Below are positions 34,314 to 63,316 of a DNA stretch of 64,000 nucleotides, one piece after another. Under the pieces are notes generated by a model. The model saw only the letters and a program-made list of their open reading frames with translations, did not search any database and was not told the DNA's origin. The position numbers and the translations under genes were made by a program. This DNA comes from an uncultured Holophagales bacterium (GTDB taxonomy: Bacteria; Acidobacteriota; Thermoanaerobaculia; Multivoradales; UBA5704): contig CAWJGT010000014.1 in assembly GCA_963842525.1 (NCBI GenBank), positions 196,602 through 260,601 of the forward strand, read 5' to 3'. How positions within the stretch are numbered: position 1 is the first letter of the stretch; each line of letters starts with the position of its first letter.

Positions 34314-35879
34314 ATGCGCTTGAAGGGCTTAACCGGGTTGGGTTGGACCGTGCTGATTGTGATCGCCATCCTCCTGGGGATAGGCGTCTACCTTCTCGTG
34401 GGAAAGAGACCGCCAAATGGCGAGAATGGTGACGGGACTCCTTCCCTTGTTGCAGTCGACTGCAGCAAGACCCTCCTCGGCCGTCCTTTACGAGTAGGTG
34501 TCGTCACCTGGCCCGGTTACGCCGGCGGAATCGTTGCCAACAACGGCTTCAAGCCGAACGCAGATGGTATATATTTCAGAAATTACAATTTGTGTGTCGA
34601 GTTCATGCTGATGGAGGACGTGGATGTCCGCGCCAAGGCGTTCGCCCGCGGCGGCGCAGACGGCGTCGATGTCGTCTGGTCGACGGTCGACTTCTGGGCC
34701 AATGAGCTGCCCGGCTTTCGGGATACCGATCTGAACGCCAAGGCCATCATGCAGGTCGACTGGTCGCGAGGCGGCGATGCGATCGTAGCCGACGACCGCA
34801 TCAAAAGCATCGAGGACCTGCAGGGGAAGAAGATCTCTCTCGCCTTGTTCACCCCCTCGCACTGGCTCCTTGAGTACAGTCTGCAGAACTCGCGCCTCGA
34901 CGAGGCTCAACAGTCCTCGATCGTGAAGGCGCTGGTCGGCAAGACTGCGTCTCCCGATGCCCGCGCCGATTTCGTGGCGGGACAAGTCGATGCGGCGGTC
35001 GTCTGGGAACCCGATGTCGCCGAGGCGCTCGCCAAACGAGAAAAATCCCACGTCATCCTCTCCACAAAAGAGGCGCGGAAGCTGATCGCCGACATCATGG
35101 TGGCACGGGAAGATTTCATCCGCGACCACCGCGACGTCATCAAGGCCTTCGTCGAGGGGTGGGTCGTGGATGGCACGGTCGAGGCGAACCGCCATCCGGA
35201 GACCGTCGTCCGCCTGCTGATGGAGCACGAGCCGCTGTACAAGGACATCGGCCCCGAGGTGACCCGGCAGAACCTGGCGACGGTGCGGTGGGCCGACCTA
35301 GCGGACAACGTCGAGATGTTCAACCTGGATGGCCGGGACCAGGAGCCTCTGTTCGACCGCATCTTCACCCAGGCGGGCAAGAGCTGGGTGGCCCGCGGGT
35401 ACATCAGCGCTCCGGTTGCCCCGGGCGTGGCGAAGGACGTCAGCTTTCTCCGAGAGATCTACCAGAAGAATCCCGTCGAGAGAAATCCCTTTGAGCTGCC
35501 AGAACCTAAGCCCGAAGTTGCGACCAAGGCACCGATCTCGGTGAAGCCGATCACCGTCAACTTCGCCTCGAACAGCTCCGTGCTGGACGCGGCCGCCCGG
35601 CAGGTGATCGATGAGGTCTCTCTGCTGCCCGAGACGATGTCCGGCGCCTATATCCGGGTGGAAGGCAATACGGACAACGTCGGCAAAGAGGATTACAATC
35701 GCTGGCTCAGCAAACGCCGTGCACAAGCCGTGGTGGACTACCTGATCAGCAGGTATCACCTGTCTGACCATCAGTTTGTGGTCGTCGGCCATGGGCCCGA
35801 CAAGCCCGTCGCGCCCAATGAGACCGACGAAGGCAGGCGCAGCAACCGGCGCACCGATATCAGTGTCGTCCGACGTTGA
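34314..35879 (+). CDS. membrane-anchored NMT1/SsuA-like substrate-binding protein fused to an OmpA-like domain (copy 1)
   Basis: N-terminal TM; VTWPGY, DWSRGGDAIV, DAAVVWEP; VEGNTD, LSKRRAQAV, NRRTDI. Confidence 0.85.
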   Translation: MRLKGLTGLGWTVLIVIAILLGIGVYLLVGKRPPNGENGDGTPSLVAVDCSKTLLGRPLRVGVVTWPGYAGGIVANNGFKPNADGIYFRNYNLCVEFMLMEDVDVRAKAFARGGADGVDVVWSTVDFWANELPGFRDTDLNAKAIMQVDWSRGGDAIVADDRIKSIEDLQGKKISLALFTPSHWLLEYSLQNSRLDEAQQSSIVKALVGKTASPDARADFVAGQVDAAVVWEPDVAEALAKREKSHVILSTKEARKLIADIMVAREDFIRDHRDVIKAFVEGWVVDGTVEANRHPETVVRLLMEHEPLYKDIGPEVTRQNLATVRWADLADNVEMFNLDGRDQEPLFDRIFTQAGKSWVARGYISAPVAPGVAKDVSFLREIYQKNPVERNPFELPEPKPEVATKAPISVKPITVNFASNSSVLDAAARQVIDEVSLLPETMSGAYIRVEGNTDNVGKEDYNRWLSKRRAQAVVDYLISRYHLSDHQFVVVGHGPDKPVAPNETDEGRRSNRRTDISVVRR

Positions 35880-35909
35880 CCCGCGCCATGAAGTGGCCTT
35901 CTAGAGGGG

Positions 35910-37493
35910 ATGGTCATTGTGCACTTGACGGGCTGGGGTAAGGCCGCGGTGGTCCTTGTCCTGGGGGGAGGCGCCTTCCTGGGGTGGTGGTCGATTCGGG
36001 GGGGGCACCGGCAGGGTATCGTCGATCCCCCTCCCCCATCTCCGCCCCCTGAGGCCGACTGCGGCAAGACCCTCCTCGGCCGTCCTCTGCGGGTCGGTGT
36101 CGTCACATGGCCGGGTTACGCCGGCGGGATCGTCGCCAACAACGGTTTCAAGCCGGACCCGGAGAGCATCTATTACAAAAAATACAATCTCTGCGTCGAG
36201 TTCATGCTGATGGAGGATGTGGACACCCGTGCGAAGGCATTCGCACGCGGTGGTGCGGACGGCGTCGATGTCGTCTGGTCCACGGTCGACTTCTGGGCCA
36301 ATGAGCTGCCCGGTTTCCTGGAGAATCATTTGAAGGCCCGGGCCATTATGCAGGTCGACTGGTCGCGCGGCGGCGATGCGATTGTGGCTGACAGCAGCAT
36401 TAAAAGTATCGAAGACCTGCACGGGAAGAGAATCTCCCTTGCCTTGTTCACTCCTTCGCACTGGCTCCTGGAGTACAGCCTGCAGAGCTCACAGCTCGAC
36501 GAAGACCAGCAAAATGCCGTCGTGAGAGCGCTGGTCGGTAAGAATGCTTCTCCCGATGCCCGCGTCGATTTCGTGGCTGGGGAAGTCGATGCGGCGGTCG
36601 TTTGGGAACCCGATGTCGCCGCGGCGCTCGCCAAGCGAGAGAATTCCCACATCCTCGTCTCCACGAAAGAGGCACGGAAGCTGATCGCCGACATCATGGT
36701 GGCACGGGAAGATTTCATTCGCGACCACGGCCCCGTGATCCGGGCATTCGTCGAGGGGTGGGTTGTGGATGGCACGGTCGAGGCGAACCGCCACCCGGAC
36801 ACGGTTGCCCGATTGCTGATGGACAACGAGCCTCTGTACAAGGACCTCGGCCGCGAGGTGACCCTGCAGAATCTGGCGACGGTGAAGTGGGCCAGCCTGG
36901 CGGACAATGTGGAGATGTTCAACCTGGACGGCAAGGACGAGGAGCCGCTGTTCGACAGCATCTTCAGCCAGGCGGCCAGGAGTTGGGTCTCCCGGGGCTA
37001 CATCAGCGCTCCCGTCGACCCGGCCGCGGCGCGGGATATCAGCTTTCTCAGAGAGATCTACCGGAGCAAACCCGTCGAGCGAGATGTCTATGTCCCGCCA
37101 CAACCTCCACCCGAGGTGGCCACGGAGCCGGCGTTCAACGTAAAAACGATCACCGTCAACTTCACGCCGAATAGCGCCGTGCTGGACGCGACAGCCCGCC
37201 AGGTCATTGGCGACCAGGTCTCCCTGCTTGCCAAGGCCATGTCCGGCGCCTATCTCCGGGTCGAGGGTAATACGGACAACCTTGGCAATCCTGAGTACAA
37301 TCGCGAGCTCAGTCTCCACCGGGCGCAGGCCGTGGTGGACTACCTGGTCAGCCAGTACCACCTGCCCGAGACCGAATTTGTTCCCATTGGCAACGGGCCC
37401 GACAAGCCCGTCGCCTCCAACGACACAGTCGACGGCAGGGCCAAGAATCGGCGCACCGACATCAGTCTCGTCAAAGGCTCACCTGCGTCATGA
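35910..37493 (+). CDS. SBP-OmpA fusion (copy 2)
   Basis: same motifs; highly similar DNA to copy 1. Confidence 0.85.
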   Translation: MVIVHLTGWGKAAVVLVLGGGAFLGWWSIRGGHRQGIVDPPPPSPPPEADCGKTLLGRPLRVGVVTWPGYAGGIVANNGFKPDPESIYYKKYNLCVEFMLMEDVDTRAKAFARGGADGVDVVWSTVDFWANELPGFLENHLKARAIMQVDWSRGGDAIVADSSIKSIEDLHGKRISLALFTPSHWLLEYSLQSSQLDEDQQNAVVRALVGKNASPDARVDFVAGEVDAAVVWEPDVAAALAKRENSHILVSTKEARKLIADIMVAREDFIRDHGPVIRAFVEGWVVDGTVEANRHPDTVARLLMDNEPLYKDLGREVTLQNLATVKWASLADNVEMFNLDGKDEEPLFDSIFSQAARSWVSRGYISAPVDPAAARDISFLREIYRSKPVERDVYVPPQPPPEVATEPAFNVKTITVNFTPNSAVLDATARQVIGDQVSLLAKAMSGAYLRVEGNTDNLGNPEYNRELSLHRAQAVVDYLVSQYHLPETEFVPIGNGPDKPVASNDTVDGRAKNRRTDISLVKGSPAS

Positions 37494-38269
37494 AGCTGTC
37501 GATTCGCCGCCCACTGCGCCCTCACGCTGAATTCATCCTTGGAGTGGCCGGAGTGGGCGTGTTCATCGCTGTCTGGTGCTTCCTGACGTACGGTGGCGTG
37601 GTCCGCGAGATCTTTCTTCCCACGCCGACCAAGATGTGGAAAGGATTGCTGGAATACGACAGAAACGGTTGGCTGTGGCTATCCATCTGGCGGAGCTTCA
37701 CCCGGGTCTCTAAGGCTCTCGGCCTGGTGATCCTGGTGGGTGTCCCCATCGGTGTCTTCATGGGATCCTTCAGGCCGGTCGACGCCTTTCTGCAAAAGAT
37801 TGTCAACGGCGCGAAGAGCGTGCCCACGACGGCGCTCACCGGTGTTGTCGTGCTCTGGTTCGGCCTCTACGAGTTCGGCAAGATCGTCTTTCTCTTCCTC
37901 GGCGCGATCTTCTTCATGATCATTCTAGTGAGGAATGCGGTCGCCGGAGTGCCGGATGACTACGTCCTGGTGGCCCTCGACCTCGGAGCAAATCGCCTCC
38001 AGCTGATCACGCGGGTTCTGCTGCCCAGTGCTCTGCCACAGATCTGGGACGCGATCGTCGTCTGTAACGGGATCATGTGGACATACATCGTGCTGGCGGA
38101 GTTCCTGGGCAGCAATCAGGAGGAAATGGGGCTCGGTTATCTCTTGCAACTCGGCAGCCGGACGCAGAATCCGGGGAAGGTGTTTGCGACACTCGTGGTC
38201 ATCGCGCTGATCTCGGCCACCACCGATCACGCATTACACGCGTTCCGCCGGCGCTTCTTGAAGTGGTGA
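37490..38269 (+). CDS. ABC transporter permease (SsuC/TauC-like)
   Basis: FLPTP, multiple TMs, EAA-like ALDLGA, LPSALP, WTYIVLAE, GLGY. Confidence 0.9.
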   Translation: MKLSIRRPLRPHAEFILGVAGVGVFIAVWCFLTYGGVVREIFLPTPTKMWKGLLEYDRNGWLWLSIWRSFTRVSKALGLVILVGVPIGVFMGSFRPVDAFLQKIVNGAKSVPTTALTGVVVLWFGLYEFGKIVFLFLGAIFFMIILVRNAVAGVPDDYVLVALDLGANRLQLITRVLLPSALPQIWDAIVVCNGIMWTYIVLAEFLGSNQEEMGLGYLLQLGSRTQNPGKVFATLVVIALISATTDHALHAFRRRFLKW

Positions 38270-38273
38270 CGCC

Positions 38274-39098
38274 ATGATGAATCAAGGCCCACCCGTCATC
38301 GTGCTGCACGAGGTCAGCAAGACGTTCCCTGCGACTCGAAATGGAGACGAGGTGCGCGTTCTGAACAAAGTGTCGCTCACTATCGACGCAAAGGGATCGG
38401 GCTCGGAGAAGGAGTCAGGCAGTTTTGTCGTGTTGCTCGGACCTTCGGGTTGTGGCAAGAGCACGATCCTGAGCATTATCGCCGGTCTGACGCTCCCAGA
38501 TGAGGGCGAGGTGCTCGTCTATGGAAAGCCCGTGGCCGGGCCCCGCCTGCACTCGGCCACGGTCCCTCAGGCCTACACGTGTTTCCCTTGGCTGACTGCG
38601 TTGGAAAATGTGGAGTTCGGATTGCGTTTGAAGGGAGTTCCCGAGGCGGAACGGGTCGCCGAGGAGTACCTGAGCAAGGTGGATCTCGCCGCCTTTGCCA
38701 ATGCCTATCCTGATGAGCTGTCAGGAGGCATGAAGCAGCGGGTGGCCATTGCGCGGACCCTGGCGATGAAGCGGCGAATCGTGCTAATGGATGAGCCCTT
38801 CGGAGCACTCGACGCCCAGACCCGGGCGGACATGCAGGAGATGCTCATTCAACTCTGGGAAGCCGAGAGTAATACGATCGTCTTCGTCACTCACGACATC
38901 ACCGAGGCTCTACTCCTTGCCGACAGAATCGTCGTCCTCTCCTCCCGTCCGGCGGAGATCCTAAAGGACATGCAGGTCCCTTTTTCCAGGCCGCGGGATG
39001 TGTACGCCCTGGAATTCAGACAGCGTGCGGAAAACCTGCGAGACCTCCTGCAAAAGCGTCGCGAGATCGCCGAGCCGTTGCCGCCGGCGGAGGTATAA
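38274..39098 (+). CDS. ABC transporter ATP-binding protein (SsuB/TauB-like)
   Basis: GPSGCGKST, LSGGMKQR, LMDEPFGALD, VTHD. Confidence 0.95.
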   Translation: MMNQGPPVIVLHEVSKTFPATRNGDEVRVLNKVSLTIDAKGSGSEKESGSFVVLLGPSGCGKSTILSIIAGLTLPDEGEVLVYGKPVAGPRLHSATVPQAYTCFPWLTALENVEFGLRLKGVPEAERVAEEYLSKVDLAAFANAYPDELSGGMKQRVAIARTLAMKRRIVLMDEPFGALDAQTRADMQEMLIQLWEAESNTIVFVTHDITEALLLADRIVVLSSRPAEILKDMQVPFSRPRDVYALEFRQRAENLRDLLQKRREIAEPLPPAEV

Positions 39099-39101: not shown

Positions 39102-39617
39102 ATGGGACTGCGTGAGCTGCTTGAAAAATTCGTTGTCTTCGACGAGGCAAGCACAAATTATTTCCGCCGGCCTAAAGAGCGGGAGGAGGGAGTGCCTTCC
39201 CCCACTCCGTCGCCGGACTTCGATCTGTCAGATGTCTACCGACAGAGGGGAATCTCGCCCGTTCCTTTCTCCGCCGAGCAGGCGCTGGCTCTCCTCGACT
39301 CTCTGCCGAAGGGAATCCGCCCCGAGACAAGGCGTCAGGCGTTCATCGATCTATTGGAAGGAATTTCGACGTCGCCTGCGGCGGTCAAGGAAGATGCACG
39401 GGGCAAGGTCGACGCGCTGACCGCCCAAGCCGATGATGCTTCCGGGGAATTTGCCGAGTTTATAACAAACACAGAGGAGGAGATCGCCGGGCTCGAGAAG
39501 GAGATCCGGGACAAGCAGGAGGCCCTCGAGCACGCCAGGGCGGCGGAGGAGCAGGTCACCCAACAGTGTCGAGCCGAGGCGGAACGACTGAAGACCTTGC
39601 TGCAAATTCTGGGCTGA
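39102..39617 (+). CDS. hypothetical coiled-coil protein
   Basis: 171 aa; long heptad C-terminus; operonic spacing. Confidence 0.7.
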   Translation: MGLRELLEKFVVFDEASTNYFRRPKEREEGVPSPTPSPDFDLSDVYRQRGISPVPFSAEQALALLDSLPKGIRPETRRQAFIDLLEGISTSPAAVKEDARGKVDALTAQADDASGEFAEFITNTEEEIAGLEKEIRDKQEALEHARAAEEQVTQQCRAEAERLKTLLQILG

Positions 39618-39636: not shown

Positions 39637-40560
39637 ATGACATCACGAATCGCCTACAACAATCCGGACTCGAACGGCGCTCTGGGCCTGCCGTACCATT
39701 ACGAGATGCTGGCCGACCGGCGCCGTCTCGATCCCCTGCGGCGGGCGATCCAGCTCGTCGCCCAGGGAAAGCGTGTGCTCGAAAGCGGCGCTGGCTCTGG
39801 CGTCCTGAGCCTCCTCGCCGCGAGAGCCGGAGCCCGCCAGGTCTATGCGGTCGAGAGAGACCCAGCGATCGCCCGATTTCTCCGGCGGAACGTGGAGAAC
39901 GCTCCCTGCGGAGGGCTGATCCGCGTTCTCGAAAGGGACACCCGGGATGTGACCCTGGCCGACCTCGATGGAGAGCCGGTGGACGTCGTCATCTCCGAGC
40001 ATCTCAGCACCTGGCAGGTGACGGAGCCGCAGACGTCGGTGATAAACCATGTCAACCGGCATCTGGCCGGCGAGTCGGCGGTGTGGATTCCGGGATGCGC
40101 GTTCAACCGCGTGGAGCTGGCGAGCTCGCAATACCGTTTCGAGGACGTCGTGGAGCTCCGGGTCCATTACTTCGGCTTCACCGGCATCCGCCAGCCGGAG
40201 GTCTTGTCCGAGCCTGCGCTCTTCCAGGAGGTCGACTTCCGGCTGATCAACGAGACGGCGATCGACCACGAAATCGAGGTGGTGGCGAACCGCGACGGCG
40301 TGCTCAACAGCCTGCGGCTGACCTCGCCGTTGCGGGTTTTTGACGGCATCGTCTTTGACTCCTCGGACAGCCTCATGCCGCCGGTCATCGTGCCGCTCGA
40401 GAGGGACCTGGAAATCGTCGCGGGCGATGTCGTGCTCGTTCGTTTCCGCTATCGATGTGAAACCGATTGGAATCGTGTCCATTGCGAAGCCATAGCGATA
40501 CCGCGGCAAGGTATGGCCCAGATGCAGGACCTAATTGCGGTGGAGAATCCAACCGACTGA
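39637..40560 (+). CDS. SAM-dependent methyltransferase, PRMT-like
   Basis: HYEMLADRRR, VLESGAGSG, VYAVE, VDVVISE..E, beta-rich C-terminus. Confidence 0.8.
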   Translation: MTSRIAYNNPDSNGALGLPYHYEMLADRRRLDPLRRAIQLVAQGKRVLESGAGSGVLSLLAARAGARQVYAVERDPAIARFLRRNVENAPCGGLIRVLERDTRDVTLADLDGEPVDVVISEHLSTWQVTEPQTSVINHVNRHLAGESAVWIPGCAFNRVELASSQYRFEDVVELRVHYFGFTGIRQPEVLSEPALFQEVDFRLINETAIDHEIEVVANRDGVLNSLRLTSPLRVFDGIVFDSSDSLMPPVIVPLERDLEIVAGDVVLVRFRYRCETDWNRVHCEAIAIPRQGMAQMQDLIAVENPTD

Positions 40561-42628: not shown

Positions 42629-43690
42629 ATGAGGGATTCCAGAGTCTTTATTGCATCCAGCGAACCGCATAAGGATACGGCGGAGTCGCTCGCGTCCAAG
42701 ATTAGAAAAGTGCGGCCCAAAAACGGCAAAGTCATCGTTCGCTTATGGTGGAGCAGCTTCGATCCTGGAAAGAACTTTCTCGCGGTATTGAGCGAGGAGT
42801 GCAGGCGGTCAGATTTCGCCGTGGTGTTTTTGACGAAGGATGATCTATTGCAGAGAAATCAGGCGCTTTACACGGTGCCGCGCGACAATTGTGTCTTCGA
42901 GGCCGGATTATTTATTGGGGCTTTCGCCACCAGAGGGAAAGGGGGGCGAGGAGAGACGGAGCGATGCCACTTGGTTACGTCGCTTACCTCTGAAGAATTA
43001 CCTTCTGATTTGCAGGGTATCAGCGTTCATCGTTTCGAGCAAGCCGGAATTTTGGATGGCGTTGCGGAGAAGATTGGGGCCACAATCCGCAGACTCGGTC
43101 CTGCAATCAAGCCTGAGCTTGAGTGTTATAATCAACGAGAGCTACTGGAAATCGAGCGCATTGAACCAAGAGGCCATCTAGTTCGCGGTGCGCACGTCTT
43201 GATCAATCTTAGGCAACCACTTGAGCTGAAGAAGTCAAAATACGCTGATCGAGTGGTCGCGAACCTGCGGGCGAACTTGCGCTACAGATATCTATTTTCT
43301 GCCGAAGAAGAGAACGCTCGATTGATCGCGGAGCTGCTCCACTCTCTTGTAGGGGAGGACCGAGAAAGCAGTGAGGGTCGCTTGTTCTGCTTGCAGAAAC
43401 AAATAAAGATAAACCTTATTCAGCCAGGGAGACCATTTGAATTCTGTATTCATAATTCCGATCGGGAGAGGGCGGCGGTTTGCTACTTGCTCCGTCCGGA
43501 CGGAAGCTTTGTCGAATGTTGCAGCGGCAGGAAGGCGATGGACGTAGCGCATGATGCAAGCTTGTGGCCGGCTTGCACCGAAGACGGGCACTGGCGACAG
43601 AGACTCAAGGAGGAGATCAACAATATTTTCGGCGACGACACTGTGTACGCGAGGCTTTCACAATGCTTTTCGAAGAGCGGGATTGCATGA
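42629..43690 (+). CDS. TIR-like (Cap12/Pycsar-type) domain protein
   Basis: VFIASS, SDFAVVFLTKDD, PRDNCVFEAGLFIG, LPSDLQGI; visibly AT-richer than neighbours. Confidence 0.75.
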   Translation: MRDSRVFIASSEPHKDTAESLASKIRKVRPKNGKVIVRLWWSSFDPGKNFLAVLSEECRRSDFAVVFLTKDDLLQRNQALYTVPRDNCVFEAGLFIGAFATRGKGGRGETERCHLVTSLTSEELPSDLQGISVHRFEQAGILDGVAEKIGATIRRLGPAIKPELECYNQRELLEIERIEPRGHLVRGAHVLINLRQPLELKKSKYADRVVANLRANLRYRYLFSAEEENARLIAELLHSLVGEDRESSEGRLFCLQKQIKINLIQPGRPFEFCIHNSDRERAAVCYLLRPDGSFVECCSGRKAMDVAHDASLWPACTEDGHWRQRLKEEINNIFGDDTVYARLSQCFSKSGIA

Positions 43691-45295: not shown

Positions 45296-45297
45296 AA

Positions 45298-49457: not shown

Positions 49458-49459
49458 GC

Positions 49460-53126: not shown

Positions 53127-53195
53127 ACGAGGATCCGATATGCGGTTTAACAATTTCCAGATGATTGGGTCTAATCTTAAAGGAGAGCTCTTGCC

Positions 53196-53705
53196 ATGAC
53201 CGAGACTCGACTCGTCCGGCGCCGCGGCGCCGCACAGCTCCGGGCGGCCCTGCCGGCCGCCCTGCTCCTCTTCCTGGTCGCGGCGTGGATCTTGCCGGTC
53301 CAAGTCCGGGCCCAGGAGCCGGACCCCGGCTCGGAGACGGCGGCGGTGGAACCGGACGACACCGCCGGCGTGGACGAATCGACCGAGCCGGAGGAAGAGT
53401 GTCTGCCGCCCTCGACCCAGGAGTGGGTGTTGATCGCGGCTGGCACGGTCGTCATCTTTCTCGTCTGTTTCTTCCTCCTGGTGCGGGTGGTGCAGCGGTA
53501 TTTCATCCGCCGCGACTGGAGCGCCACTCTCGGGCGCCACTCGGGCATCTCCCTGATCCTTTTCCTCAGCTCGTTGGGGATGCTCCCCCTCGGCTACCTG
53601 GTCACCGGCTGTGTCCATCCGCAGTTTTGGGTGTGGCTCCTCTTTCCCCTGGCCTTGTGGGTGATCCACGGCCTGTACGTTCTGGTAGTCGTCCGCAGCG
53701 AGTGA
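53196..53705 (+). CDS. small membrane protein (signal peptide, acidic linker, 3 TM)
   Basis: AAGGAG RBS; hydrophobicity pattern. Confidence 0.75.
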   Translation: MTETRLVRRRGAAQLRAALPAALLLFLVAAWILPVQVRAQEPDPGSETAAVEPDDTAGVDESTEPEEECLPPSTQEWVLIAAGTVVIFLVCFFLLVRVVQRYFIRRDWSATLGRHSGISLILFLSSLGMLPLGYLVTGCVHPQFWVWLLFPLALWVIHGLYVLVVVRSE

Positions 53706-53730
53706 ACCGTGATCGAAGGGAGGACATCCC

Positions 53731-56700: not shown

Positions 56701-57720
56701 ATGCTCGCCCCTGATCTGCGCAATCGCCTGCAGACCGATATCCAGAACGAGAGGGAGCGTTTCCTTGCCACTCCCGAAGGGAGCCTCTATCATCTGATTG
56801 CGCTCGCCGACTACTACGCCTACTGCATCTTCCCGGTGCGCAAAGCCGCAGGGGCGGGACAAGGAATGATCATTCCCTTAGGCTCGATGCAGAACCTCGT
56901 GTGCCATGAGCTGCGAGCGGAGTGGCGGACCGAGCAGAAGCGCAACGAGCCCAATGCCAAACGTCTCGAGGAAGAGGTCCGCCGGGTGCTCCAGAGCCTC
57001 GCAACCTGGAGCAAGCCGGCTTACCGCGACCAGCGGCAGATCGTGCCCGGCACGCCCGAAATGCCCGAGAGCGAGCGCCTGGAAGAGTGGGGATTGCTCA
57101 ATCTTGCCGCCGGGGCTGTCCGGTCCTTCGTCGCCGACGGGCTCATTCCGCAGACCCGCGATCGCCTGGGCAATCTGATCCTGCGTTTTCCCCGGCTGGC
57201 CCTCGACTGGCCCTGGTTCGAAAAGGAGGCGGAGAAGCCGGCGACGCCGAGCGTGAGCTGGTCCTACCGTGGCGACGCAGGGCAGGAGCAAGGGCTCTCA
57301 GCCGACGAGATCGCCGAGCGCGTGAGGCGCAAGCCTGGAGAGACGCATCGCGTCTGGTCGAAAGGTATGGACAACTGGAGGAATGCCCAGGAGGTTCCGG
57401 AGATCGCGCAGCTCCTCGCGACGCCCGACGGACCGCCGGTCGACACAGTGGACTCAGAGAAGACATCACCTCCTCCCGACGATGGCGAGATGCCTCCACC
57501 CTTGGTGGAGCCCGGGGATGGCGAACCGCTCTTCTTCTATGCCTGTGACGATCGGCAGATGGGAAAGCTCTCGGCCGACGAAATCGCCCTGCGTGTCGCC
57601 GAGACACCTGGAAGCGTCCATCGGGTCTGGACCAAATCGTTCGGATCGAGCTGGAAAGCGGCTCTGGACGTTCCGGAGATCGCCACCAGGATGCCGGACC
57701 TGCCCCCGCCGCTTTCGTGA
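53731..57720 (+). CDS. large tubulin/FtsZ-like GTPase (Tubulin_2 / FtsZl1 type) with coiled coils and two C-terminal GYF_2-like domains
   Basis: IALGGTG, IDTD, GAGQIRQLSR, LAGGTGSG, ANGFATLKEL; RVWSKGMDNWRNAQEVPEI and RVWTKSFGSSWKAALDVPEI. Confidence 0.85.
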   Translation: MVETSVMTRRIIGGVSEAEEADYTKRLEEEARKRERGIYPRTIFIALGGTGAKALMHMRRMVIERFGGLDSLEGVAYLSIDTDVRSQEPSPEEEKKSPLDKAISFAKDERVNVKVDFKNYVGPNLIHHPQIREWWDEAALPNTEFNLEIGAGQIRQLSRLAFFTNRDEIQEGIGRAYRKVTSISVEGSRVDTASKVRIVIVAGLAGGTGSGMLFDLAAQLQDQLGHHETPSLEAFLVLPGGFSTVEQGKNYPKIAANGFATLKELNHYLVHPFSVRWQAQSLPIEVLGLFERYVLFSGTNASNEHLSDLADCYRAIGEILFLDFGAGPMAGWIQGVRVNRQQYLRSAITNTYRLSRPDGGSLETHADQWKTAFSSAGVSKLVFPSWRLINKAKYELAAQMVALMDPGRISKLADILNTHRDRFLFDCGFLQGDRQTDQGRETHSQVRDRLAKQLNAGLEVNNVYEHIQKYQEELVGLAENMYTEKNTVEMGAEVWKKLASLWGDPYSKGNEGDWPKQIWENRRALAKEVHERLPAVIEDYRRKPAVGLSGVMALLKEILQLLERPAEQARYSDWFRQQRQSLKRTMDESQTLWDKRLRNADRASRGIGSNKDNHQAAVRQAADALGDYSRARVNDYICDQAPEALRAIRASLAEQLGRLERISEKMMALESEYLSFSRFYDAPQRSFIVHEIAPPANLGDLLEPYLGRQPEERAERLQRLLDKGLRQMNLNALEDIGEKLSGEFEKFRDNLAAQAFYALRGEGGRTAAFVENPDDAVPGFIERYSVFKVLKENYNAEQRREMFGQLFRKGLPWAQQNRSEAIVVEYRPHGDAFLGYVAEEYQDIAREMLAQMQAGASTLFLPRPVRAYDPSEIIFYSELTAFPAYYLSELSDLKRHYETLLNDTKSVTPLHIDQDFHQFQPLMPFNPGQLSSYKHAWQLFVQAQMLGLVRSLRLRADDDVRLVYQWRRKVGAFDVQWTDLGAEGRAIERLMLAPDLRNRLQTDIQNERERFLATPEGSLYHLIALADYYAYCIFPVRKAAGAGQGMIIPLGSMQNLVCHELRAEWRTEQKRNEPNAKRLEEEVRRVLQSLATWSKPAYRDQRQIVPGTPEMPESERLEEWGLLNLAAGAVRSFVADGLIPQTRDRLGNLILRFPRLALDWPWFEKEAEKPATPSVSWSYRGDAGQEQGLSADEIAERVRRKPGETHRVWSKGMDNWRNAQEVPEIAQLLATPDGPPVDTVDSEKTSPPPDDGEMPPPLVEPGDGEPLFFYACDDRQMGKLSADEIALRVAETPGSVHRVWTKSFGSSWKAALDVPEIATRMPDLPPPLS

Positions 57721-57738: not shown

Positions 57739-59793
57739 ATGTCTGGCATCCGCGATTGGAGGCGTCTCTGGCGATTCCTCGCGTTGCCTCTTGTCCTGGC
57801 CCTTCTCGCGTGCTCGGACGAGCCCGGGCGCCGAGGACAGCGGCGCATCTCGTCCGTACCGCGGGTGGCCTACCGGGGCCACAGTCCAGATTTTCCGTTG
57901 CAGGCAGTCTCGCTGGCGGCGCTCCAACGGCGCCTCGCCTCCTGCGCAGCCCGGCGGCACGCCTGCCCCGCCGAAGCCGTGAGCCTGGGGGGCCTCACCC
58001 GCCTCCTGGGCTACACGGTGGATGCCGCCCGTCACGACATCGTGCTCCTGGGGCTCGTGGATCCGGCAGCACCACCGATCCACACTGCCGACTTCGTCAT
58101 CGCCTTGCGCAACGCCTGGTTCCGGTATGCTCCTCTCAAAGGAAATGTGCGGGAGTATTCCTATCCCGGCTGTGACATCCGTCCGGGCCAGGAAGCCGCC
58201 CAGCAGCTCACACGGCTCGAAAAGGAAATCTCCTCACACACCTCACCGGATTCCTTCAAAAGCGACGCAGAAAAGTGGCGCCGGGTCTGCCGGTTGCGGC
58301 AGCGGGTGAGCGTCATCGGTGTACCTCATGACAGCCATTTCGGGCACGTCATGGTGATCGCGGATTACCACATGAAAAAGCTGGCCGACGGCTCCGACGA
58401 TCTGGCAATCCCCGGCCTTGCGAGCCTGTCGGATCTCCGGATGGCGGAAGCCCGTCAAGCTGTCCTGGCCGGGCGCTCCGGCAGCTTCGGCTCCAGCATG
58501 AATCGATTCTGGTTGTCCCCCGGCGAGAACGAGTACGCCGGGACGGAAGGCACTTTTTTCCTGCAATGGTCGCCCGTCCAGGTGCGGACTCACTCCTCGG
58601 GGATCGACTCCGCGGGCAACGTCCGGGATACCGAAGGAACAGACGCTCTGGCGGAGGATTTCGCTCTGCGCTTTTCCCTGCTCTACGAGCAGGTAGCTCA
58701 GCGGCGGCCGGTTTATCGCGAGCTGGAGAGCTTGTTCCATCTCGTGGCCCTCTCCAAGGCGATGCACAGCAATCAGGCGGACCGCTCAGCGGGCCTCTCG
58801 CTTAGATATCTTCTTCACAAGTTTCCCTTGGTGAAGCAGCCTGTCCCCCAGGAAGTTCCCGGACGGCCCAGGGTCAGGGAATTCCAGCATCGCCAAGAGA
58901 CACCTGACGGTGCGACGACCGTTTATCTGCAGATGCCCAGTTGCGGCGGCGTCGACATTCGCCTCGAGCCCGAGCCTGTCCAGCCGCTCCCTTCCGAGCA
59001 GGCGAGACTCCGAGACAACGCCCTGCAGAACCATCCCCAGAATGCCATCGCCTGGCCGGTAGAGATCAATCCCGCCGTTCAGACCAGCCTCCAGACCAAC
59101 CGCCGTCTGCGCCGCATCAACCGCACCAACAAACCCCTGGTCCTTGTGGTCGAGGACGCAGGCTCGGCCTATCGACTCCACGACGGTACGACATCCGTAG
59201 CCTACACGGACTTCGATGTGTCGAAGATCCTCCAGCGCGCCTCGGATCTGGCGCGGGGCAAGGAAACGAGCAGCATATACATCGAGACGAAGGGTTTTTC
59301 CGCGGACAGGAAGAGCGCTTTCGACGAGAGCTGCCGCGTCCAGCTCGCGCGGATGGATACAGACTTCAGATTGCACACCCTCCACGATGCTCCTGGAACC
59401 TTGAGCGAAGAGGCTCTTTTCTCTCGCAGTGTCCGGATCGAGCTTCCTTCCGGTCCCGCCGTGCAGATCACCGAGGGTCCTCACCGCGGCTTCTTTAAAA
59501 AGGCTTGCCACGCTGTCGTGACCCTCGGCAAAGGGTCCGTGAAGGTGACGTTGACCGTCATCGCCCGCAGCGCGGAGATCCTGGACCGCTTCTTCGAGCT
59601 GCTAGGCCTTCGTCTCTCGTTGGCTGACAGCCTGCCGTTCAGCCTGCTCGACGTCACCGATCAAGTGTGGCGTGACCTGAAGGAGGAGTATCCGGACGTG
59701 ACAGATGACGACCTCAAGATCCTCATCGAGGATCAAACCGGCAACACGTATGTGGTGTCTGTCGAGACACCGAGAAGCGAGGCGGCGGCTTGA
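57739..59793 (+). CDS. lipoprotein with DUF1598-like domain
   Basis: LLAC lipobox; GGLTRL, DIVLLG, FVIALR, GCDIRP, GVPHDSHF, ADYHMK, NRFW. Confidence 0.6.
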   Translation: MSGIRDWRRLWRFLALPLVLALLACSDEPGRRGQRRISSVPRVAYRGHSPDFPLQAVSLAALQRRLASCAARRHACPAEAVSLGGLTRLLGYTVDAARHDIVLLGLVDPAAPPIHTADFVIALRNAWFRYAPLKGNVREYSYPGCDIRPGQEAAQQLTRLEKEISSHTSPDSFKSDAEKWRRVCRLRQRVSVIGVPHDSHFGHVMVIADYHMKKLADGSDDLAIPGLASLSDLRMAEARQAVLAGRSGSFGSSMNRFWLSPGENEYAGTEGTFFLQWSPVQVRTHSSGIDSAGNVRDTEGTDALAEDFALRFSLLYEQVAQRRPVYRELESLFHLVALSKAMHSNQADRSAGLSLRYLLHKFPLVKQPVPQEVPGRPRVREFQHRQETPDGATTVYLQMPSCGGVDIRLEPEPVQPLPSEQARLRDNALQNHPQNAIAWPVEINPAVQTSLQTNRRLRRINRTNKPLVLVVEDAGSAYRLHDGTTSVAYTDFDVSKILQRASDLARGKETSSIYIETKGFSADRKSAFDESCRVQLARMDTDFRLHTLHDAPGTLSEEALFSRSVRIELPSGPAVQITEGPHRGFFKKACHAVVTLGKGSVKVTLTVIARSAEILDRFFELLGLRLSLADSLPFSLLDVTDQVWRDLKEEYPDVTDDDLKILIEDQTGNTYVVSVETPRSEAAA

Positions 59794-60404
59794 CCGCTGA
59801 GGGACTCGCCGATCGGGTCTCGCGGCCGCGGGACTGCGCCTTCGCAGTGGGTATCCCGACGTCCGAGGATGGATACCGGCGGAGTCTCCATTCTCCCGAG
59901 GAAAGCTTTGTGAGGCGCCACGGCACCTATGACCGGTATTGGCACGAGATCGTGCGTCCGTTCCAATTGCTTGCGCACGATGTCAAGAGGTTCGGCGTAC
60001 GCCTGGTTCGGGACCTCACCCTTGATCATTTTGGATCTCTCTGTCGCGACGAGGACGTGCATGTCGTGATCCTCTTCTCGCACTGGGACGAAAGCGGCGT
60101 CGAGCTCTATGACGGCTTCGCGTCGACGGACAGGATCATCGAACGCGTGCCCGACCAGGGCTCGGCTGTCCTCGACCTCTGCGTCTGCCATCCTTGCGAG
60201 CTGGTGTCCCGGCTCCATGCCGAACGGAATGCCTACCTGATCTACTTCCGGAACATCGAGGCGAAGCCCCGATTCTGGTTGCGCTTCTATCCGGCCCTGT
60301 TCCGTTCCCTCCACCGGCGCCCGAACAACTATCTCAAGGCGTTCACCGAACTACAGATCAGCCTTCTCCAGCGGTACCGAGCTTCCGCGACAGGTGCAAG
60401 ATGA
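59790..60404 (+). CDS. hypothetical protein, possibly divergent caspase/CHAT-fold
   Basis: overlaps both neighbours by 4 nt; VVILFSHW..VELYDG..VLDLCVC. Confidence 0.55.
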   Translation: MTAEGLADRVSRPRDCAFAVGIPTSEDGYRRSLHSPEESFVRRHGTYDRYWHEIVRPFQLLAHDVKRFGVRLVRDLTLDHFGSLCRDEDVHVVILFSHWDESGVELYDGFASTDRIIERVPDQGSAVLDLCVCHPCELVSRLHAERNAYLIYFRNIEAKPRFWLRFYPALFRSLHRRPNNYLKAFTELQISLLQRYRASATGAR

Positions 60405-62455
60405 CCGACGCTTCGAAACCGATTGCGAGACCCACTCTGCGGCAGAGCCTTGAAGCGTACCTGGCAAGCCTCGATCGCCTGGAGGAGCCGGGCCTCGGCC
60501 CGCGCGGGAAAGCTCCGCGTTCAGCGACCTCCGCGGACAGTACCTGGCTCCGGGCCTCCCTGCGGGAAGTCAAAGCCAGCCAGCGCCGTCTCTTTGCTCT
60601 CTGCGTCGCCGTCCTCTGCGTGATCTTTGCGATCCAGGTGGGCCTCCTGCTGTACAGCCTCCTGGCAAAGAACCCGGTCGGCAGCGCGATCGGCGGTGGA
60701 GTGGTCGTGTTCCTGCCGGTTCTCTGGTGGTTGCGCCGGCTGTGGATCGACAACTTCATCCTGCATCTCGCCGAGAAGATCATCGTCGAGCTGCCACCCG
60801 AGCAACAGGTCAAAACGATCGAGCTCCTCTATTGGGGTTCCCTGATGCCGAAAGGTAAGAAGCCTGCAGGAGCTGGTCTGAAATGCAGTGATCTTGACTC
60901 TCGTCGGCGTCAGCCAGAGAGATTGGAGGAAGTAGTGGAGAGCACTAATTCGGAGAAAGAGGCCAGCACAGGTACGCCCGTTTCTCTCAAAGATCGTTTT
61001 GCGGTCCAGGCACGCGATGTTGTGCTCATTGGCGTCGTCGTCCTACTCATCGGCGCTTGGGTCATCGTGCGCGGCAATCAAGCGTCCGCGGGTCTGCTCG
61101 GCCGCCCACTCCGCGTTGGCATTGTGCCCTGGCCGGGCTACGCCGGCGGTCTTGTCGCCAACAACGGGCTGCGAGCTAATAAGGATTCGGATTTCTGGAG
61201 AAACCACAACCTGCTCGTGCAGTTCGCGATCGTTCCCGACGAGGCGCAACTGCGTAAGGATTTCGCGCGCGGTGGAGAGAAAGGTGGAGTCGACATCATG
61301 TGGTCCACCGTCGACTCGCTGGCCCAACAGTTTCCAAGTTTTGCGAAGGAAGATCTCAAACCCCGTGCCATTATGCAGGTCGACTGGTCTCGCGGCGGCG
61401 ACGCGATCATCGCAAGCGCGGGAATTGAACGCATCGAGGATCTGAGGGGAAAGAAGATTGCCGTTTCCATGGCCGCCTCGCAATGGCTACTCGAGTACAG
61501 CCTCGAGAACTCGAGCCTGACCGGCGCCGAGCGGACGGAGATCCGAAACCGCCGTCTCACGACCAGCGGCTCACAGGAAGCTCGCGACCTGTTCGTCAAC
61601 GGCGACGTCGACGCCGCCGTCCTCTGGGAACCCGACGTCACTGAGGCCATCAACCGGCGACCCGGGGCGAACAAGCTGATCGACACAAGCGCAGCGGCCA
61701 ATCTGATCGCAGACGTCATGGTTGCGAAGGAAGAGTTCATCCGGGAACACCCCAAGGTCATCGACGCCTTCATCCGAGGTTGGCTCCTCGACGGGACGAC
61801 GAAGGCGATCGGCAATCCGATGCTGGCCGTCAAGGCGTTGCTGGAGGAGCCGGACTTCGAGAGACTGGGTGAGAAGACGACTCACAAGCTGCTCGGAACG
61901 GTGGCGTTCGCCACGCTGGACGAGAATGCGAGGATGTTTGGCCTGTCAGACGGCGACCCCCTCTTTGGACCTCTTTTCAACGAAGCCGGTCAGCTCTGGC
62001 TGAGAAACGGCTACATCACGGCCCAGGCGATCGCTGAGCAGGCGCAGGACATTCGCTCGCTGCGGGAGATTCACAGCGCGGAACTGGGGTCTCTGGCGGC
62101 AAGAGCGGTCTGCGGCTCGGAGCGCATGACGAAGGAGCTCTCCGTCGTCTTCCCTCCAGGCAAGGCGGAGCTGAGCCCGGAGGCGCAGCGCAGCCTCGAC
62201 GACGAGATCTCGCTCCTCGTCCGGACGTTGTCCGAGTTCCGCTTCTGCATTGAGGCTGTCAAGGCTGCAGGGGAAGATCCTCAGCGTGACCTCGAGCTCA
62301 GAAAGGCTCGCGAGGCCGAAGTCATCAAGCATCTGGTTGAACGTTACAATTTATCACGGAGCCGGTTCGTTTCCGTGAGCGCCGGTATCCCCGAAACTGC
62401 CAACGGCGGGAAAGCTTCACAATACATACGCCTGAGGTTGGTCAGCGGGGATTAG
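60401..62455 (+). CDS. N-terminal membrane domain + SBP + degenerate OmpA-like domain (copy 3)
   Basis: ATG at 60401; GRPLRVGIVPWPGY, DWSRGGDAII, DAAVLWEP; OmpA motifs eroded. Confidence 0.8.
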   Translation: MTDASKPIARPTLRQSLEAYLASLDRLEEPGLGPRGKAPRSATSADSTWLRASLREVKASQRRLFALCVAVLCVIFAIQVGLLLYSLLAKNPVGSAIGGGVVVFLPVLWWLRRLWIDNFILHLAEKIIVELPPEQQVKTIELLYWGSLMPKGKKPAGAGLKCSDLDSRRRQPERLEEVVESTNSEKEASTGTPVSLKDRFAVQARDVVLIGVVVLLIGAWVIVRGNQASAGLLGRPLRVGIVPWPGYAGGLVANNGLRANKDSDFWRNHNLLVQFAIVPDEAQLRKDFARGGEKGGVDIMWSTVDSLAQQFPSFAKEDLKPRAIMQVDWSRGGDAIIASAGIERIEDLRGKKIAVSMAASQWLLEYSLENSSLTGAERTEIRNRRLTTSGSQEARDLFVNGDVDAAVLWEPDVTEAINRRPGANKLIDTSAAANLIADVMVAKEEFIREHPKVIDAFIRGWLLDGTTKAIGNPMLAVKALLEEPDFERLGEKTTHKLLGTVAFATLDENARMFGLSDGDPLFGPLFNEAGQLWLRNGYITAQAIAEQAQDIRSLREIHSAELGSLAARAVCGSERMTKELSVVFPPGKAELSPEAQRSLDDEISLLVRTLSEFRFCIEAVKAAGEDPQRDLELRKAREAEVIKHLVERYNLSRSRFVSVSAGIPETANGGKASQYIRLRLVSGD

Positions 62456-62476
62456 AACTGGGAGGACGGTTACTGT

Positions 62477-63316
62477 ATGAGCCTTTCGAAGTGGTGGTAT
62501 CCTGGCCTCAGGGCAATCGTGGAAACCGCGAATCTGGTAGCATTGGCCATCCTTTGCGTAGCATCCTTCCTCACGATCGATTGGGTGCTCTTCGGCGTCG
62601 GTATCGCGCTGGAGGCGACCTATCTGGGTTGGCGGTCCAGATCACCCCATTACAGGAGGCAACTTGAATTGCGGGCGGAGTCTGGCAAGCCTGATCTGGA
62701 CCCTCTGGATCCCCTGCTTCTAGTGGTCACCGTCACGGGCTTTGTAGTCATCCTGTTCTTCGGATTTGGAAAGCATCTGCTGAACCATCGCTTCCCGGAC
62801 CTGACGCATGCGGAAGGCTGGGAGGCTGGCGCGATCGTATGGACGGGTCTATTCCTTCTTTACTACCTCGTCAAGTTTCGTGCGACCGGCAACTTTATCG
62901 TTGACAAGTTTGTCATCGTGATCATCGCGTTCTTGGGCGCCGTGCTGCTCATCCTGGCATGGAGCTCGATGGGGAGGTGGGCCGACCACATTCCGTTCGT
63001 CATGGCGATCGGCTTCTGCTTTCTCATCATCGATGGCTTGAGCATGCTTTTTCACCCCGACGAAAAGGAGAAGATGCTGTCCAGAAATTCCTTATGGTGG
63101 GTCGATGTCCCGATGGTCTTCGCATTTGCGGTGCTCTGGGGGTATCTCTTGATGCACCGTGACACGGAGAATCCCGATGTTTTCGTCTCTGGAGTCATCT
63201 CATGCCAGCTCCTGATTTCGAACGCGGCCTTCGTCGTCATGGAGTTCGGGCTGCTCCAACCTCCTCACGTAGCAAGCGCCGATGAGGTCGCGAGTTCCAA
63301 GAGCGCGGAGGAGTGA
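62477..63316 (+). CDS. multi-TM membrane protein, homologous to the N-terminus of 40570-42561
   Basis: GGAGG RBS; WEAGAIVW..YY, DVPMV, GVISCQLLISN shared motifs. Confidence 0.75.
   Translation: MSLSKWWYPGLRAIVETANLVALAILCVASFLTIDWVLFGVGIALEATYLGWRSRSPHYRRQLELRAESGKPDLDPLDPLLLVVTVTGFVVILFFGFGKHLLNHRFPDLTHAEGWEAGAIVWTGLFLLYYLVKFRATGNFIVDKFVIVIIAFLGAVLLILAWSSMGRWADHIPFVMAIGFCFLIIDGLSMLFHPDEKEKMLSRNSLWWVDVPMVFAFAVLWGYLLMHRDTENPDVFVSGVISCQLLISNAAFVVMEFGLLQPPHVASADEVASSKSAEE

Follow-up and report, generated by a model that had tools for sequence, protein, structure and literature searches.

A Nineteen-Gene Array with a Conserved Center

We have studied a run of 19 genes, g1 to g19, that occupies positions 34314-63316 of a 64,000-nucleotide (nt) stretch of DNA from an uncultured Holophagales bacterium. 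The whole stretch, termed the window, corresponds to G000:C14:196602-260601 (contig C14 of genome G000) and all positions are given in its numbering; its end is also the end of the contig. An initial annotation had taken the 19 genes as a single trans-envelope NTPase or conflict system. We find instead that the array is a mosaic around a membrane-associated module of seven genes, g9-g15, encoding a tubulin-like GTPase of the FtsZl1 family, a transmembrane (TM) protein with a predicted von Willebrand factor A (vWA) domain, and an Hsp70/GrpE-like pair. The unit of study shrinks from 29 kb and 19 genes to ~14 kb and seven genes (43694-57720).

The genes are consecutive and all lie on the + strand, as judged from lists of open reading frames (ORFs), a frame plot of GC content at third codon positions (GC3) and mapping of the starts. 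They are closely packed, as initially described. When all junctions were measured, the widest gaps were 69 nt (g13/g14) and 67 nt (g7/g8), and five pairs overlap by 4 nt (g2/g3, g10/g11, g12/g13, g16/g17 and g17/g18). A gap of 345 nt lies upstream of g1. By arithmetic estimate, with no tool involved, a same-strand run of 19 genes would arise from random orientation with a probability of 0.5^18.

The Genes of the Module

The seventh gene of the module, g15 (53731-57720), encodes an FtsZl1/Tubulin_2 GTPase. It matches PF13809 with E = 3.9e-55 and a score of 188 bits, compared with a cut-off of 27, over positions 1-355 of the 356 in the profile. A long helical region and a C-terminal GYF_2 domain (1.6e-07; 57280-57720) follow. 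The second NTPase of the core is the Hsp70-like ATPase of g10 (45298-48336; core gene 2; PF00012, 5.8e-15), which is preceded by a Zn-ribbon (Zn_Ribbon_1) and immunoglobulin (Ig)-like domains. Across 12 sequences the four Zn-ribbon cysteines of g10 are invariant, and other invariant residues are read as motifs of the Hsp70 nucleotide-binding domain (NBD). Pfam matches to Ig-like domains are found in the orthologs of the second subfamily (tier 2, described below).

Core gene 3, g11 (48333-49457), encodes a signal or TM segment, a helical segment, a further TM segment and a cytoplasmic GrpE-like domain, as indicated by profile searches, hhalign and hydropathy. When a 14-member profile (A6) of the C-terminal 200 residues was compared with the PDB, all four matches at E ≤ 10 were GrpE, among them 3a6m (0.0013) and 1dkg (0.0014). 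The trimmed and deeper alignment A6 was needed to reveal this relationship; an earlier alignment, A2, had given coiled-coil noise (spike HR1). Alignment of g11 with the canonical GrpE of the genome by hhalign gave E = 1.3e-4 over the beta domain. That canonical GrpE is encoded on contig C32, and a second GrpE-family ORF (223 aa, 51.3 bits, above the Pfam cut-off) lies at G000:C3:170817-171062.

Prediction of complex structures had been proposed at the outset as a check. A model of the g10 NBD with the C-terminal domain of g11 scored 0.78, against 0.01 for the best control; of 80 solved complexes 58 attained that mark, as did two of 110 mismatched pairs. The model runs agreed in at least 89% of their contacts, with a predicted local distance difference test (pLDDT) score of at least 84 for the partner. 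The modeling supports, without demonstrating, binding of the GrpE-like domain to the g10 NBD, with a predicted placement like that of GrpE on DnaK. A DnaK-GrpE complex has already been solved (1dkg), and therefore the success of the model may merely reflect likeness.

The product of core gene 5, g13 (51111-53126), begins with a signal- or lipoprotein-like N terminus, followed by a predicted periplasmic vWA domain, a beta-sandwich, a TM helix and a small cytoplasmic beta domain. Five residues (D81, S83, S85, T206 and D231) are invariant in 17 sequences, and are read as an intact metal ion-dependent adhesion site (MIDAS). The AlphaFold2 (AF2) model has a pLDDT of 77.5. A Foldseek search with the whole model was dominated by beta-sandwich domains, and the vWA matches came from VIA-align, where residues 69-307 gave a Sec23/24 trunk (Z = 8.7, root-mean-square deviation [rmsd] 4.1 Å over 174 residues) and a vWA pilin (Z = 8.2). 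Residues 347-546 matched beta-sandwich domains with Z up to 9.8; the TM helix comprises residues 549-572 and the small beta domain follows it. Hydropathy analysis gave two hydrophobic segments in g11, and in g13 a signal-like segment at the N terminus and a TM segment close to the C terminus. The predicted topology thus puts the vWA domain in the periplasm and the GrpE-like domain in the cytoplasm.

Three genes of the module remain. The product of core gene 6, g14 (53196-53705), is a small membrane protein in which hydropathy shows three TM segments and a signal-like segment; its orthologs are syntenic. Core gene 4, g12 (49460-51114), encodes a Zn-ribbon and a beta-propeller, and analysis of its frame shows it to be disrupted in the window (see below). 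Its family profile matches designed, WD40 and BamB-type propellers, the best at 2.4e-13, and Zn-ribbon models match its tier-2 orthologs. Core gene 1, g9 (43694-45295), has a linker rich in proline, ends in a beta domain, and is specific to the window's own subfamily (tier 1), where it is recognized by its synteny in genomes G030 and G037. Among 5.8 billion proteins its family comprises 19 clusters, none of which has a Pfam domain or any name besides 'hypothetical protein'.

Most of the domain assignments made initially for the module have stood up to this analysis. The Zn/Ig/Hsp70-like and tubulin-like-GYF labels are found again in Pfam, the GrpE-like one is sustained by profile, hhalign and complex model, and the vWA-TM one by the MIDAS and the fold. 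The propeller of g12 is upheld by the family profile, although its frameshift had been overlooked.

Conservation of the Module in Two Subfamilies

For the tier-1 comparison 20 translated pieces were searched by tblastn (E ≤ 1e-5) against 50-kb neighborhoods in G030 and G037. All of g9, g10, g11, g12, g13, g14 and g15 are present in both, and in the same order. There was no match at either locus for g1-g8 and g16-g19, except for g1 and g2, which matched an OmpA-domain region in G030. The proposal that all 19 genes are one conserved unit thus fails, and the separation of core from variable genes by their neighborhoods, a check suggested with it, gives a conserved core of g9-g15 between variable flanks. 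Further loci were obtained by scanning genome and metagenome contigs with the g13 alignment. Partial tier-1 contigs (L028, L029, L031 and L032) hold the consecutive core genes that would be expected. Apart from g12, the six core genes of the window (g9-g11 and g13-g15) are full length and align end to end with their orthologs. The vWA-TM gene is present as two tandem paralogs in G037 (L030), L029 and L031, and once in the window and in G030.

The module is distributed sparsely. The tubulin gene g15 is single-copy in the window's genome, and full-length orthologs, with 58-62% identity, are found in four of 61 related genomes including the window's own (G000, G030, G052 and G037); none was found in the five genomes of the same genus. 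The g13 family was found in three of 401 genomes sampled across the phylum, and a search of 1.84 billion gave 97 representatives of it at E ≤ 1e-30. The record titles of the module loci are Acidobacteriota, Thermoanaerobaculia and Myxococcota, and thus at least two phyla by title.

A second subfamily, tier 2, has tubulins of ~27-30% identity and ~1320 aa. Eleven tier-2 loci have at least 9 kb of upstream sequence (G022, G048, G057, G149, L034, L035, L036, L037, L039, L042 and L044, with L037 and L039 nearly identical), and all 11 keep the order Ig-Hsp70-like, GrpE-like, Zn-ribbon propeller, vWA, small TM protein, tubulin. The gene maps were made with a crude ORF caller of our own, and misses were rechecked with tblastn. 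There are one or two GrpE-like genes per locus. The link between the chaperone pair and the tubulin-like GTPase with its vWA-TM protein, which had been drawn from the window alone, is therefore recurrent across both subfamilies.

The two subfamilies differ in the ends of their tubulins and in their associated genes. The C terminus carries GYF_2 in tier 1 and a double Zn-ribbon in tier 2 (L037:15590-15740). The gene g9 accompanies the tier-1 tubulins and is lacking from tier-2 loci; comparison of its family with that of the tier-2 upstream gene by hhalign gave a probability of 0.04, so that the two are unrelated. The end domain of the tubulin (GYF or Zn-ribbon) may co-vary with the partner g9. 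A trypsin-like peptidase is encoded downstream in nine of the 11 tier-2 loci, usually with a CarboxypepD_reg/PEGA protein; the subfamily has this peptidase in place of the TIR protein. Upstream of the tier-2 module there is a glycine-zipper protein in three of six scanned loci and a Ser/Thr kinase in four loci. A kinase-TPR gene lies by the G057 locus, and a radical-SAM-TIR gene by that of G022, where a protein of 797 aa that combines radical SAM with TIR_2 is encoded just upstream (L019:3683-6076). In tier 1, an NACHT-type NTPase lies beside the G030 locus. Two further tier-2 loci have neighbors of other kinds: a phospholipase resembling Tle1 of the type VI secretion system (T6SS) at L044:18834-20072, on the - strand, and a VWA_2 protein together with a protein having an extracellular contractile injection system (eCIS) core domain at L034:17921-20085.

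The Flanking Genes and Their Relation to the Module

The array opens with an ABC transporter. The products of g1 (34314-35879) and g2 (35910-37493) are tandem paralogs with 77% identity (over G000:C14:232634-234076) in which a substrate-binding protein (SBP) is fused to an OmpA-like domain (Pfam); in g1 an N-terminal TM anchor precedes an NMT1/SsuA-like SBP (NMT1, 2.1e-07; NCBIfam SsuA_fam, 5.1e-19) and the OmpA-like domain (1e-17). A TauC/SsuC-like permease is encoded by g3 (37490-38269; PF00528, 2.1e-23; NCBIfam TauC, 2.9e-30, under its cut-off), and an ABC ATPase by g4 (38274-39098; PF00005, 7.8e-30), the only gene of the array in which a scan found a Walker A motif. The set of NMT1 SBP, BPD_transp_1 permease and ABC_tran ATPase is thus complete, and in the usual order, as in the TauABC and SsuABC importers. 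It differs from these in the N-terminal TM anchor and C-terminal OmpA-like peptidoglycan-binding domain of the SBP, and in having three copies of the SBP. The equivalog cut-offs for TauABC/SsuABC are not reached by g1-g4, and a substrate is therefore not assigned. The Zorya system was considered and rejected; ZorB models match only the OmpA-like C termini of g1 and g2, and nothing matches ZorA.

Four genes separate the importer from the module. A small protein encoded by g5 (39102-39617) is probably a coiled coil and is lineage-specific; the coiled-coil label that it had been given agrees with weak matches only (ATG16, 0.0043 in Pfam; JetC, 0.0012 in PADLOC). An S-adenosylmethionine-dependent methyltransferase resembling protein arginine methyltransferases (PRMT) is encoded by g6 (39637-40560). 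Its Pfam matches are to generic methyltransferases, and 60 of the 60 PDB matches listed are eukaryote-type protein arginine methyltransferases, although g6 is bacterial (best PRMT7, 1.7e-13). In g7 (40570-42561) about eight TM segments, from hydropathy, precede a WD40 propeller (4.9e-38). The candidate effector is g8 (42629-43690), with a TIR domain of the Cap12/Pycsar type (PF10137, 4.6e-16; PADLOC TIR effector, 4.8e-22) and a C-terminal region of ~200 aa. In the PDB it matches Cap12 (7un8, 3.9e-12) over the TIR part only. It shares with Cap12 (TIR-SAVED) and PycTIR an N-terminal PF10137 TIR domain, and is of similar size (353 aa, compared with 311-331 aa for Cap12). The 200-aa C-terminal part matches nothing, and a SAVED domain is therefore not shown. 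No cyclase of the CBASS (cyclic oligonucleotide-based antiphage signaling) or Pycsar systems was found in the 20 translated pieces with Pfam or PADLOC, and g8 is not placed in either system.

Downstream of the module, g16 (57739-59793) encodes a lineage-specific DUF1598 protein with a lipoprotein-like N terminus (PF07643, 6.8e-11). The small protein of g17 (59790-60404) is possibly CHAT/caspase-like. The CHAT-like label assigned to it has a lead in the ESM Atlas, where CHAT-named clusters stand at ranks 7 and 15 with 0.91, and g17 has no match in Pfam, PADLOC or NCBIfam. A third paralog of g1 is provided by g18 (60401-62455; 44% identity), with three TM segments, an SBP (NMT1, 9.8e-07) and a degenerate OmpA-like domain (0.0029). 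The last gene, g19 (62477-63316), encodes a six-TM protein paralogous to the N-terminal TM region of g7 (BLASTP, 6e-15). The window stops at the end of the contig, so the array may run on past g19. A single + strand ORF of 166 aa, belonging to no family, lies in the remaining sequence (63313-64000), and the contig ends without showing the downstream boundary of the array. Taken over the flanks, the initial labels of three SBP-OmpA proteins, ABC permease and ATPase, TM-WD40, TIR, DUF1598 and PRMT-like proteins are confirmed by Pfam, PADLOC, NCBIfam and the PDB matches. The paralogy between the two ends of the array is confirmed as well.

It could be argued that all 19 genes form one trans-envelope system, in which the ABC transporter, together with SBPs anchored in the wall, would detect or take up a ligand and pass this input to the chaperone-controlled GTPase and its effectors. 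The tight spacing and the five 4-nt overlaps extend throughout the array, no intergenic terminator-like site stands out, with counts near the shuffled expectation, and the core is bracketed by paralogs (g1 and g18, and the N terminus of g7 and g19, on opposite sides), so that members of one gene family lie both upstream and downstream of it. An SBP-OmpA protein also adjoins the core in G030. However, g1-g8 and g16-g19 lack counterparts at the G030 and G037 loci save for the OmpA-domain matches, and the g19 family is found in one of the 61 genomes searched, the window's own. The transporter leads a separate life elsewhere. Some match to g1 occurs in 58 of the 61 related genomes, many of them to the OmpA domain alone, with full-length homologs in most relatives. 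In 10 of 10 loci sampled from relatives the SBP-OmpA gene is accompanied by counterparts of the g3 permease and the g4 ATPase and by no other gene of the array, and in genomes having both the transporter and the tubulin gene these are on separate contigs or megabases apart. We conclude that g1-g4 are an independent, widespread transporter, against the initial view of them as part of the system.

Base composition divides the array in a similar manner. The mean GC content of the genome is 0.678. Genes g9-g14 have values of 0.66-0.71, compared with 0.52-0.63 for g0-g8 and 0.56-0.63 for g15-g19, so that all twelve flank genes are low; the TIR gene g8 has 0.52, a value that falls on the 0.3 percentile for 2-kb windows of the genome. 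The unlike GC content of the flanks (0.52-0.63) and of g9-g14 suggests different histories. A system of all 19 genes is accordingly the least probable of the explanations that we have weighed, and we regard it as very unlikely.

One element of it may persist. A PBP_like_2+OmpA protein, which is an SBP-OmpA fusion not orthologous to g1, is encoded divergently beside the core of G030, and OmpA-domain partners of FtsZl1 are described in parts of an earlier survey (PMC2875224). An OmpA-anchored periplasmic protein may therefore be a recurrent accessory of the core.

Two Single-Nucleotide Insertions in g12

The reading frame of g12 shifts at ~50398-50408, and there is no in-frame ATG, GTG or TTG ahead of 49734. 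Its orthologs in L027, L029 and L031 are intact single ORFs of 526-539 aa. Contigs from four soil-metagenome runs were aligned to positions 49400-51200; two of these, X1 and X4, cover only parts of the region. At 50407 there is one base fewer in X2 (depth 8.8) and X3 (depth 5.9), relatives that are ~90-92% identical. Toward the start of the gene there is one base fewer at 49469 in X2 (depth 8.8) and at 49471 in a piece of X4 (~98% identity, depth 2), and removal of the base at either position brings the ATG at 49460 into frame with the body of g12. The remaining indels add up to multiples of three in each contig. Relative to these metagenomic relatives, the g12 of the window thus has two frame-disrupting 1-nt insertions (~49469-49471 and 50407).

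Is the locus then a decaying, non-functional remnant? This would be compatible with any of the other readings. The broken gene occurs in all tier-1 and tier-2 loci that cover its position, no second copy was found in the genome, and both lesions fall within one gene of 1.65 kb with no frame break seen in the other 18. Against this, the remaining six genes of the core have their full length, and the two separately translated fragments of g12 might still work. The insertions could also be errors of assembly: the best sequencing run shared 0.12 of sampled words, and the sole metagenomic piece that is 100% identical stops at 50406, just short of 50407. We consider decay of the locus improbable.

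Relation to Described Systems

Operons that combine FtsZl1 with vWA proteins were described when the family was defined (Makarova and Koonin, 2010; PMC2875224). According to the main text of that paper, the partners are vWA proteins with an intact MIDAS, OmpA-like proteins, kinases and a diverged GTPase. The present module has in common with these an FtsZl1 GTPase and a MIDAS-intact vWA protein with TM or signal segments in one predicted operon, OmpA-domain proteins nearby, and many neighbors that are lineage-specific membrane proteins. The OmpA-domain feature, attributed there to 'several genomes', is found here in g1, g2 and g18 and beside the G030 core, and was not found beside that of G037. 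The module differs in lacking the P-loop GTPase that is a frequent partner in that account; there is no Walker A motif in g5-g19. There is also no kinase among the 19 genes. One Ser/Thr kinase is encoded upstream on the opposite strand (30842-32305), and kinases lie upstream of the four tier-2 loci noted above. The main text has no occurrence of Hsp70; its families A1-A2 and B1-B9 are defined in supplements and may include some of g9-g14.

Sections of a second study (Kaur, Burroughs, Iyer and Aravind, 2020; PMC7159879) describe DO-GTPase/GAP1-N2 conflict systems, which are NTP-dependent and have variable effectors. As set out there, a theme of tubulin with TM-vWA and another of HSP70 with GrpE are non-overlapping, and are found mainly in Firmicutes and Actinobacteria. 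Our module resembles these systems in its tubulin homolog accompanied by a TM protein with an extracellular vWA domain, in the HSP70-GrpE theme, in the constancy of its NTPases and variability of its effectors (TIR and peptidases), and in the zinc ribbons on core proteins. It differs in that both themes stand together in one predicted operon, at loci with the titles Acidobacteriota, Thermoanaerobaculia or Myxococcota. The one or two DO-GTPases of the TRAFAC clade that define those systems were not found: the core has no Walker A motif, and no GTPase family of this kind was matched in Pfam or NCBIfam.

Nor was GAP1 (GAP1-N2, -M and -C) detected, in a search where Pfam is empty for g9, g11, g12, g13 and g17, a sub-threshold match falls on g14, and g9 lacks a usable model. 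The Pfam library presumably holds GAP1 models. By analogy, the module may work like the DO-GTPase systems without being a member of them.

The initial annotation had not recognized the combination as a described system. This stands for the exact module, of which no description was found in the literature, the relevant works being PMC2875224 and PMC7159879. It does not extend to the parts, since FtsZl1 with vWA and OmpA (passages of PMC2875224), and tubulin with vWA and HSP70 with GrpE (passages of PMC7159879), had each been described. The kind of module was therefore outlined in 2010 and 2020, and the combination of tubulin, Hsp70/GrpE and vWA without a DO-GTPase is a new variant. Two other candidates from the literature were set aside: CoCoNuT has, in the portions of PMC11090510 that concern it, an Hsp70-like protein in another context, and PMC8195603 never mentions tubulin.

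The Hsp70/GrpE-like pair can be compared with the DnaK-GrpE cycle (1dkg). Common to the two are the motifs of the Hsp70 NBD, the GrpE-type helical bundle with its beta domain and, in the model, an interface of the DnaK-GrpE kind. In contrast to DnaK, g10 scores 71.8 bits where the equivalog cut-off is 648, and has N-terminal Zn-ribbon and Ig-like domains, and g11 differs from GrpE in being membrane-anchored through two TM segments. A Pfam search of the array revealed no DnaJ-type partner. The pair is thus not a canonical DnaK/DnaJ/GrpE set.

A Possible Role in Conflict

The reading that we favor, and to which we give about an even chance, is that g9-g15 are an FtsZl1-vWA module that operates in the manner of NTPase-gated conflict systems and has effectors that can be swapped. 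A conflict-type function is favored because the distribution is very patchy and because the neighbors are of effector type (TIR, radical-SAM-TIR, kinase-TPR, NACHT and trypsin-like peptidase). Effectors that can be exchanged had been postulated at the outset, and the neighbors of the core do vary in this way.

We can envisage how such a module would function. The vWA ectodomain would bind an extracytoplasmic ligand or sense a perturbation of the envelope, and the TM helix and cytoplasmic tail of g13 would relay the signal to the tubulin-like GTPase, which would polymerize at the membrane. The dedicated Hsp70/GrpE-like pair could set the threshold for assembly, or reset it by remodeling, with the propeller and Ig domains in a scaffolding role; g9 and g11 have proline-rich linkers, which the tubulin may bind through its GYF domains. 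The resulting assembly would concentrate or activate an effector encoded at the same locus: in the window the TIR protein g8, of the Cap12 type and probably an NADase, and in tier 2 the trypsin-like peptidase. An invaded cell would in consequence stop growing or die. The SBP-OmpA ABC transporter of g1-g4 is separate, lying upstream by chance. A more specific form of this scheme, which we put forward tentatively and hold to be doubtful, is that the core is an unrecognized scaffold for immune or stress signaling, in which a membrane-bound tubulin polymer, triggered by the periplasmic vWA-MIDAS and licensed or reset by the membrane-tethered Hsp70/GrpE, activates interchangeable effectors by induced proximity.

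A number of observations weigh against the conflict-type reading. We infer the defense role of the module from the 'grammar' of gene neighborhoods alone, and no recognizable effector adjoins the core in G030 or G037, where the neighbors are Pfam-less or weakly transglutaminase-like. PADLOC, a check that had been proposed, matches no system to the core; its matches in the array are to a single TIR effector model and to domains of a generic kind. The rarity of the g13 family may be overstated, since only three candidates were scored per genome in the search of 401 genomes. Some of the structural assignments are also less than firm. The vWA matches of g13 are middling (Z 8.2-8.7, rmsd ~4.1-4.2 Å) and no vWA domain was recognized in it by sequence profile (neither in Pfam nor in a PDB search with the g13 alignment A1, which gave no match), so the MIDAS motif carries much of the weight of this assignment. 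PF01025 does not detect g11, although it picks up the canonical GrpE of this genome. The AF2 model of g9, built from a three-sequence alignment, is poor (pLDDT 47), and the ESM Atlas gave no usable match. In addition, the copy of the module in the window may be defective, on account of the two insertions in g12. Lastly, consensus scans found three promoter-like sites where ~3.3 were expected from shuffled controls, and 14 and 15 terminator-like sites in two scans where 11.0 and 8.6 were expected, none of any of these being in the intergenic gaps of the array.

Alternatively, the core might be a machine for remodeling the envelope or membrane, in which an anchored tubulin polymer shapes or vesiculates the inner membrane and has no part in immunity. 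It would be helped by a coat-like vWA/beta-sandwich protein, the propeller and an uncoating-type Hsp70, and tied to the cell wall by SBP-OmpA. Passages of Makarova and Koonin (PMC2875224) propose membrane remodeling for FtsZl1 operons, and of the seven proteins of the core, five either have a membrane anchor themselves or act on partners that do. The folds of g13 are in keeping with this: its vWA domain matches Sec23/24 chains (1m2v, Z = 8.7; 3eh1, Z = 8.3) and its beta-sandwich matches ArnB (5a8j, Z = 8.3) and ArnAB (8s05, Z = 7.9). OmpA-SBP fusions, moreover, adjoin the core in the window and, in the non-orthologous form, in G030. But the NMT1-type SBP-OmpA transporter is unlinked to the tubulin loci in every other genome examined, and the predicted locations of the vWA domain (periplasm) and the propeller (cytoplasm) differ; on opposite sides of the membrane the two could not form a single coat layer. 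The effector-type neighbors (TIR, trypsin-like peptidase and NACHT) also speak for conflict rather than remodeling. The distribution is very patchy, and no ortholog was found in any of the five genomes from the same genus. This suits an accessory function, but is compatible with remodeling too. On balance we think membrane remodeling rather unlikely, and retain the conflict-type reading.

Whichever of these is correct, the module gives access to a GTPase family for which, since its description in 2010, we have found no experimentally shown function in the literature. As a recurring unit of six to seven genes it supplies testable partners for FtsZl1, namely an Hsp70-like ATPase with its exchange factor, a receptor bearing a MIDAS, the propeller protein and the small TM protein, and it is small enough for transfer into a model host. 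It also comes in two subfamilies that differ in end domains (GYF versus double Zn-ribbon) and associated genes (g9 and TIR versus trypsin-like peptidase). If the conflict reading is true, bacterial immunity would include a logic of tubulin plus chaperone that dispenses with the P-loop GTPase known from the systems described so far. The scaffold, if real, would be a prokaryotic counterpart of the filament-based signaling platforms of eukaryotes and the first function assigned to FtsZl1, while membrane remodeling would make the module a bacterial cytoskeletal device with a dedicated chaperone.

Genes Upstream of the Array

A small ORF that belongs to no family lies just ahead of the array on the + strand (33177-33968). 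Divergent from it, on the - strand, are an extracytoplasmic function (ECF) sigma factor (PF07638, 5.6e-53) and the Ser/Thr kinase noted above, which together occupy positions 30842-32971; a gene with sigma-70 region 2 is also found near the core of G030. About 5 kb upstream of the array a 522-aa protein with AAA_16 ATPase and PDDEXK_9 nuclease-superfamily domains is encoded on the + strand (27903-29471).

A tRNA-Asp of 88 nt predicted by ARAGORN at 22843-22930 was considered as the boundary of an island and rejected; it lies inside the ORF of the second of two kinases (21036-23039) and is probably a false positive. The surrounding sequence (15848-26359, + strand) is a co-directional run of five genes, encoding an FHA protein, a phosphatase of the PP2C type that also has a beta-helix, the two Ser/Thr kinases and a fusion protein of 1109 aa in which an FtsW/RodA/SpoVE domain (the shape, elongation, division and sporulation, or SEDS, family) is joined to the transpeptidase domain of a penicillin-binding protein.

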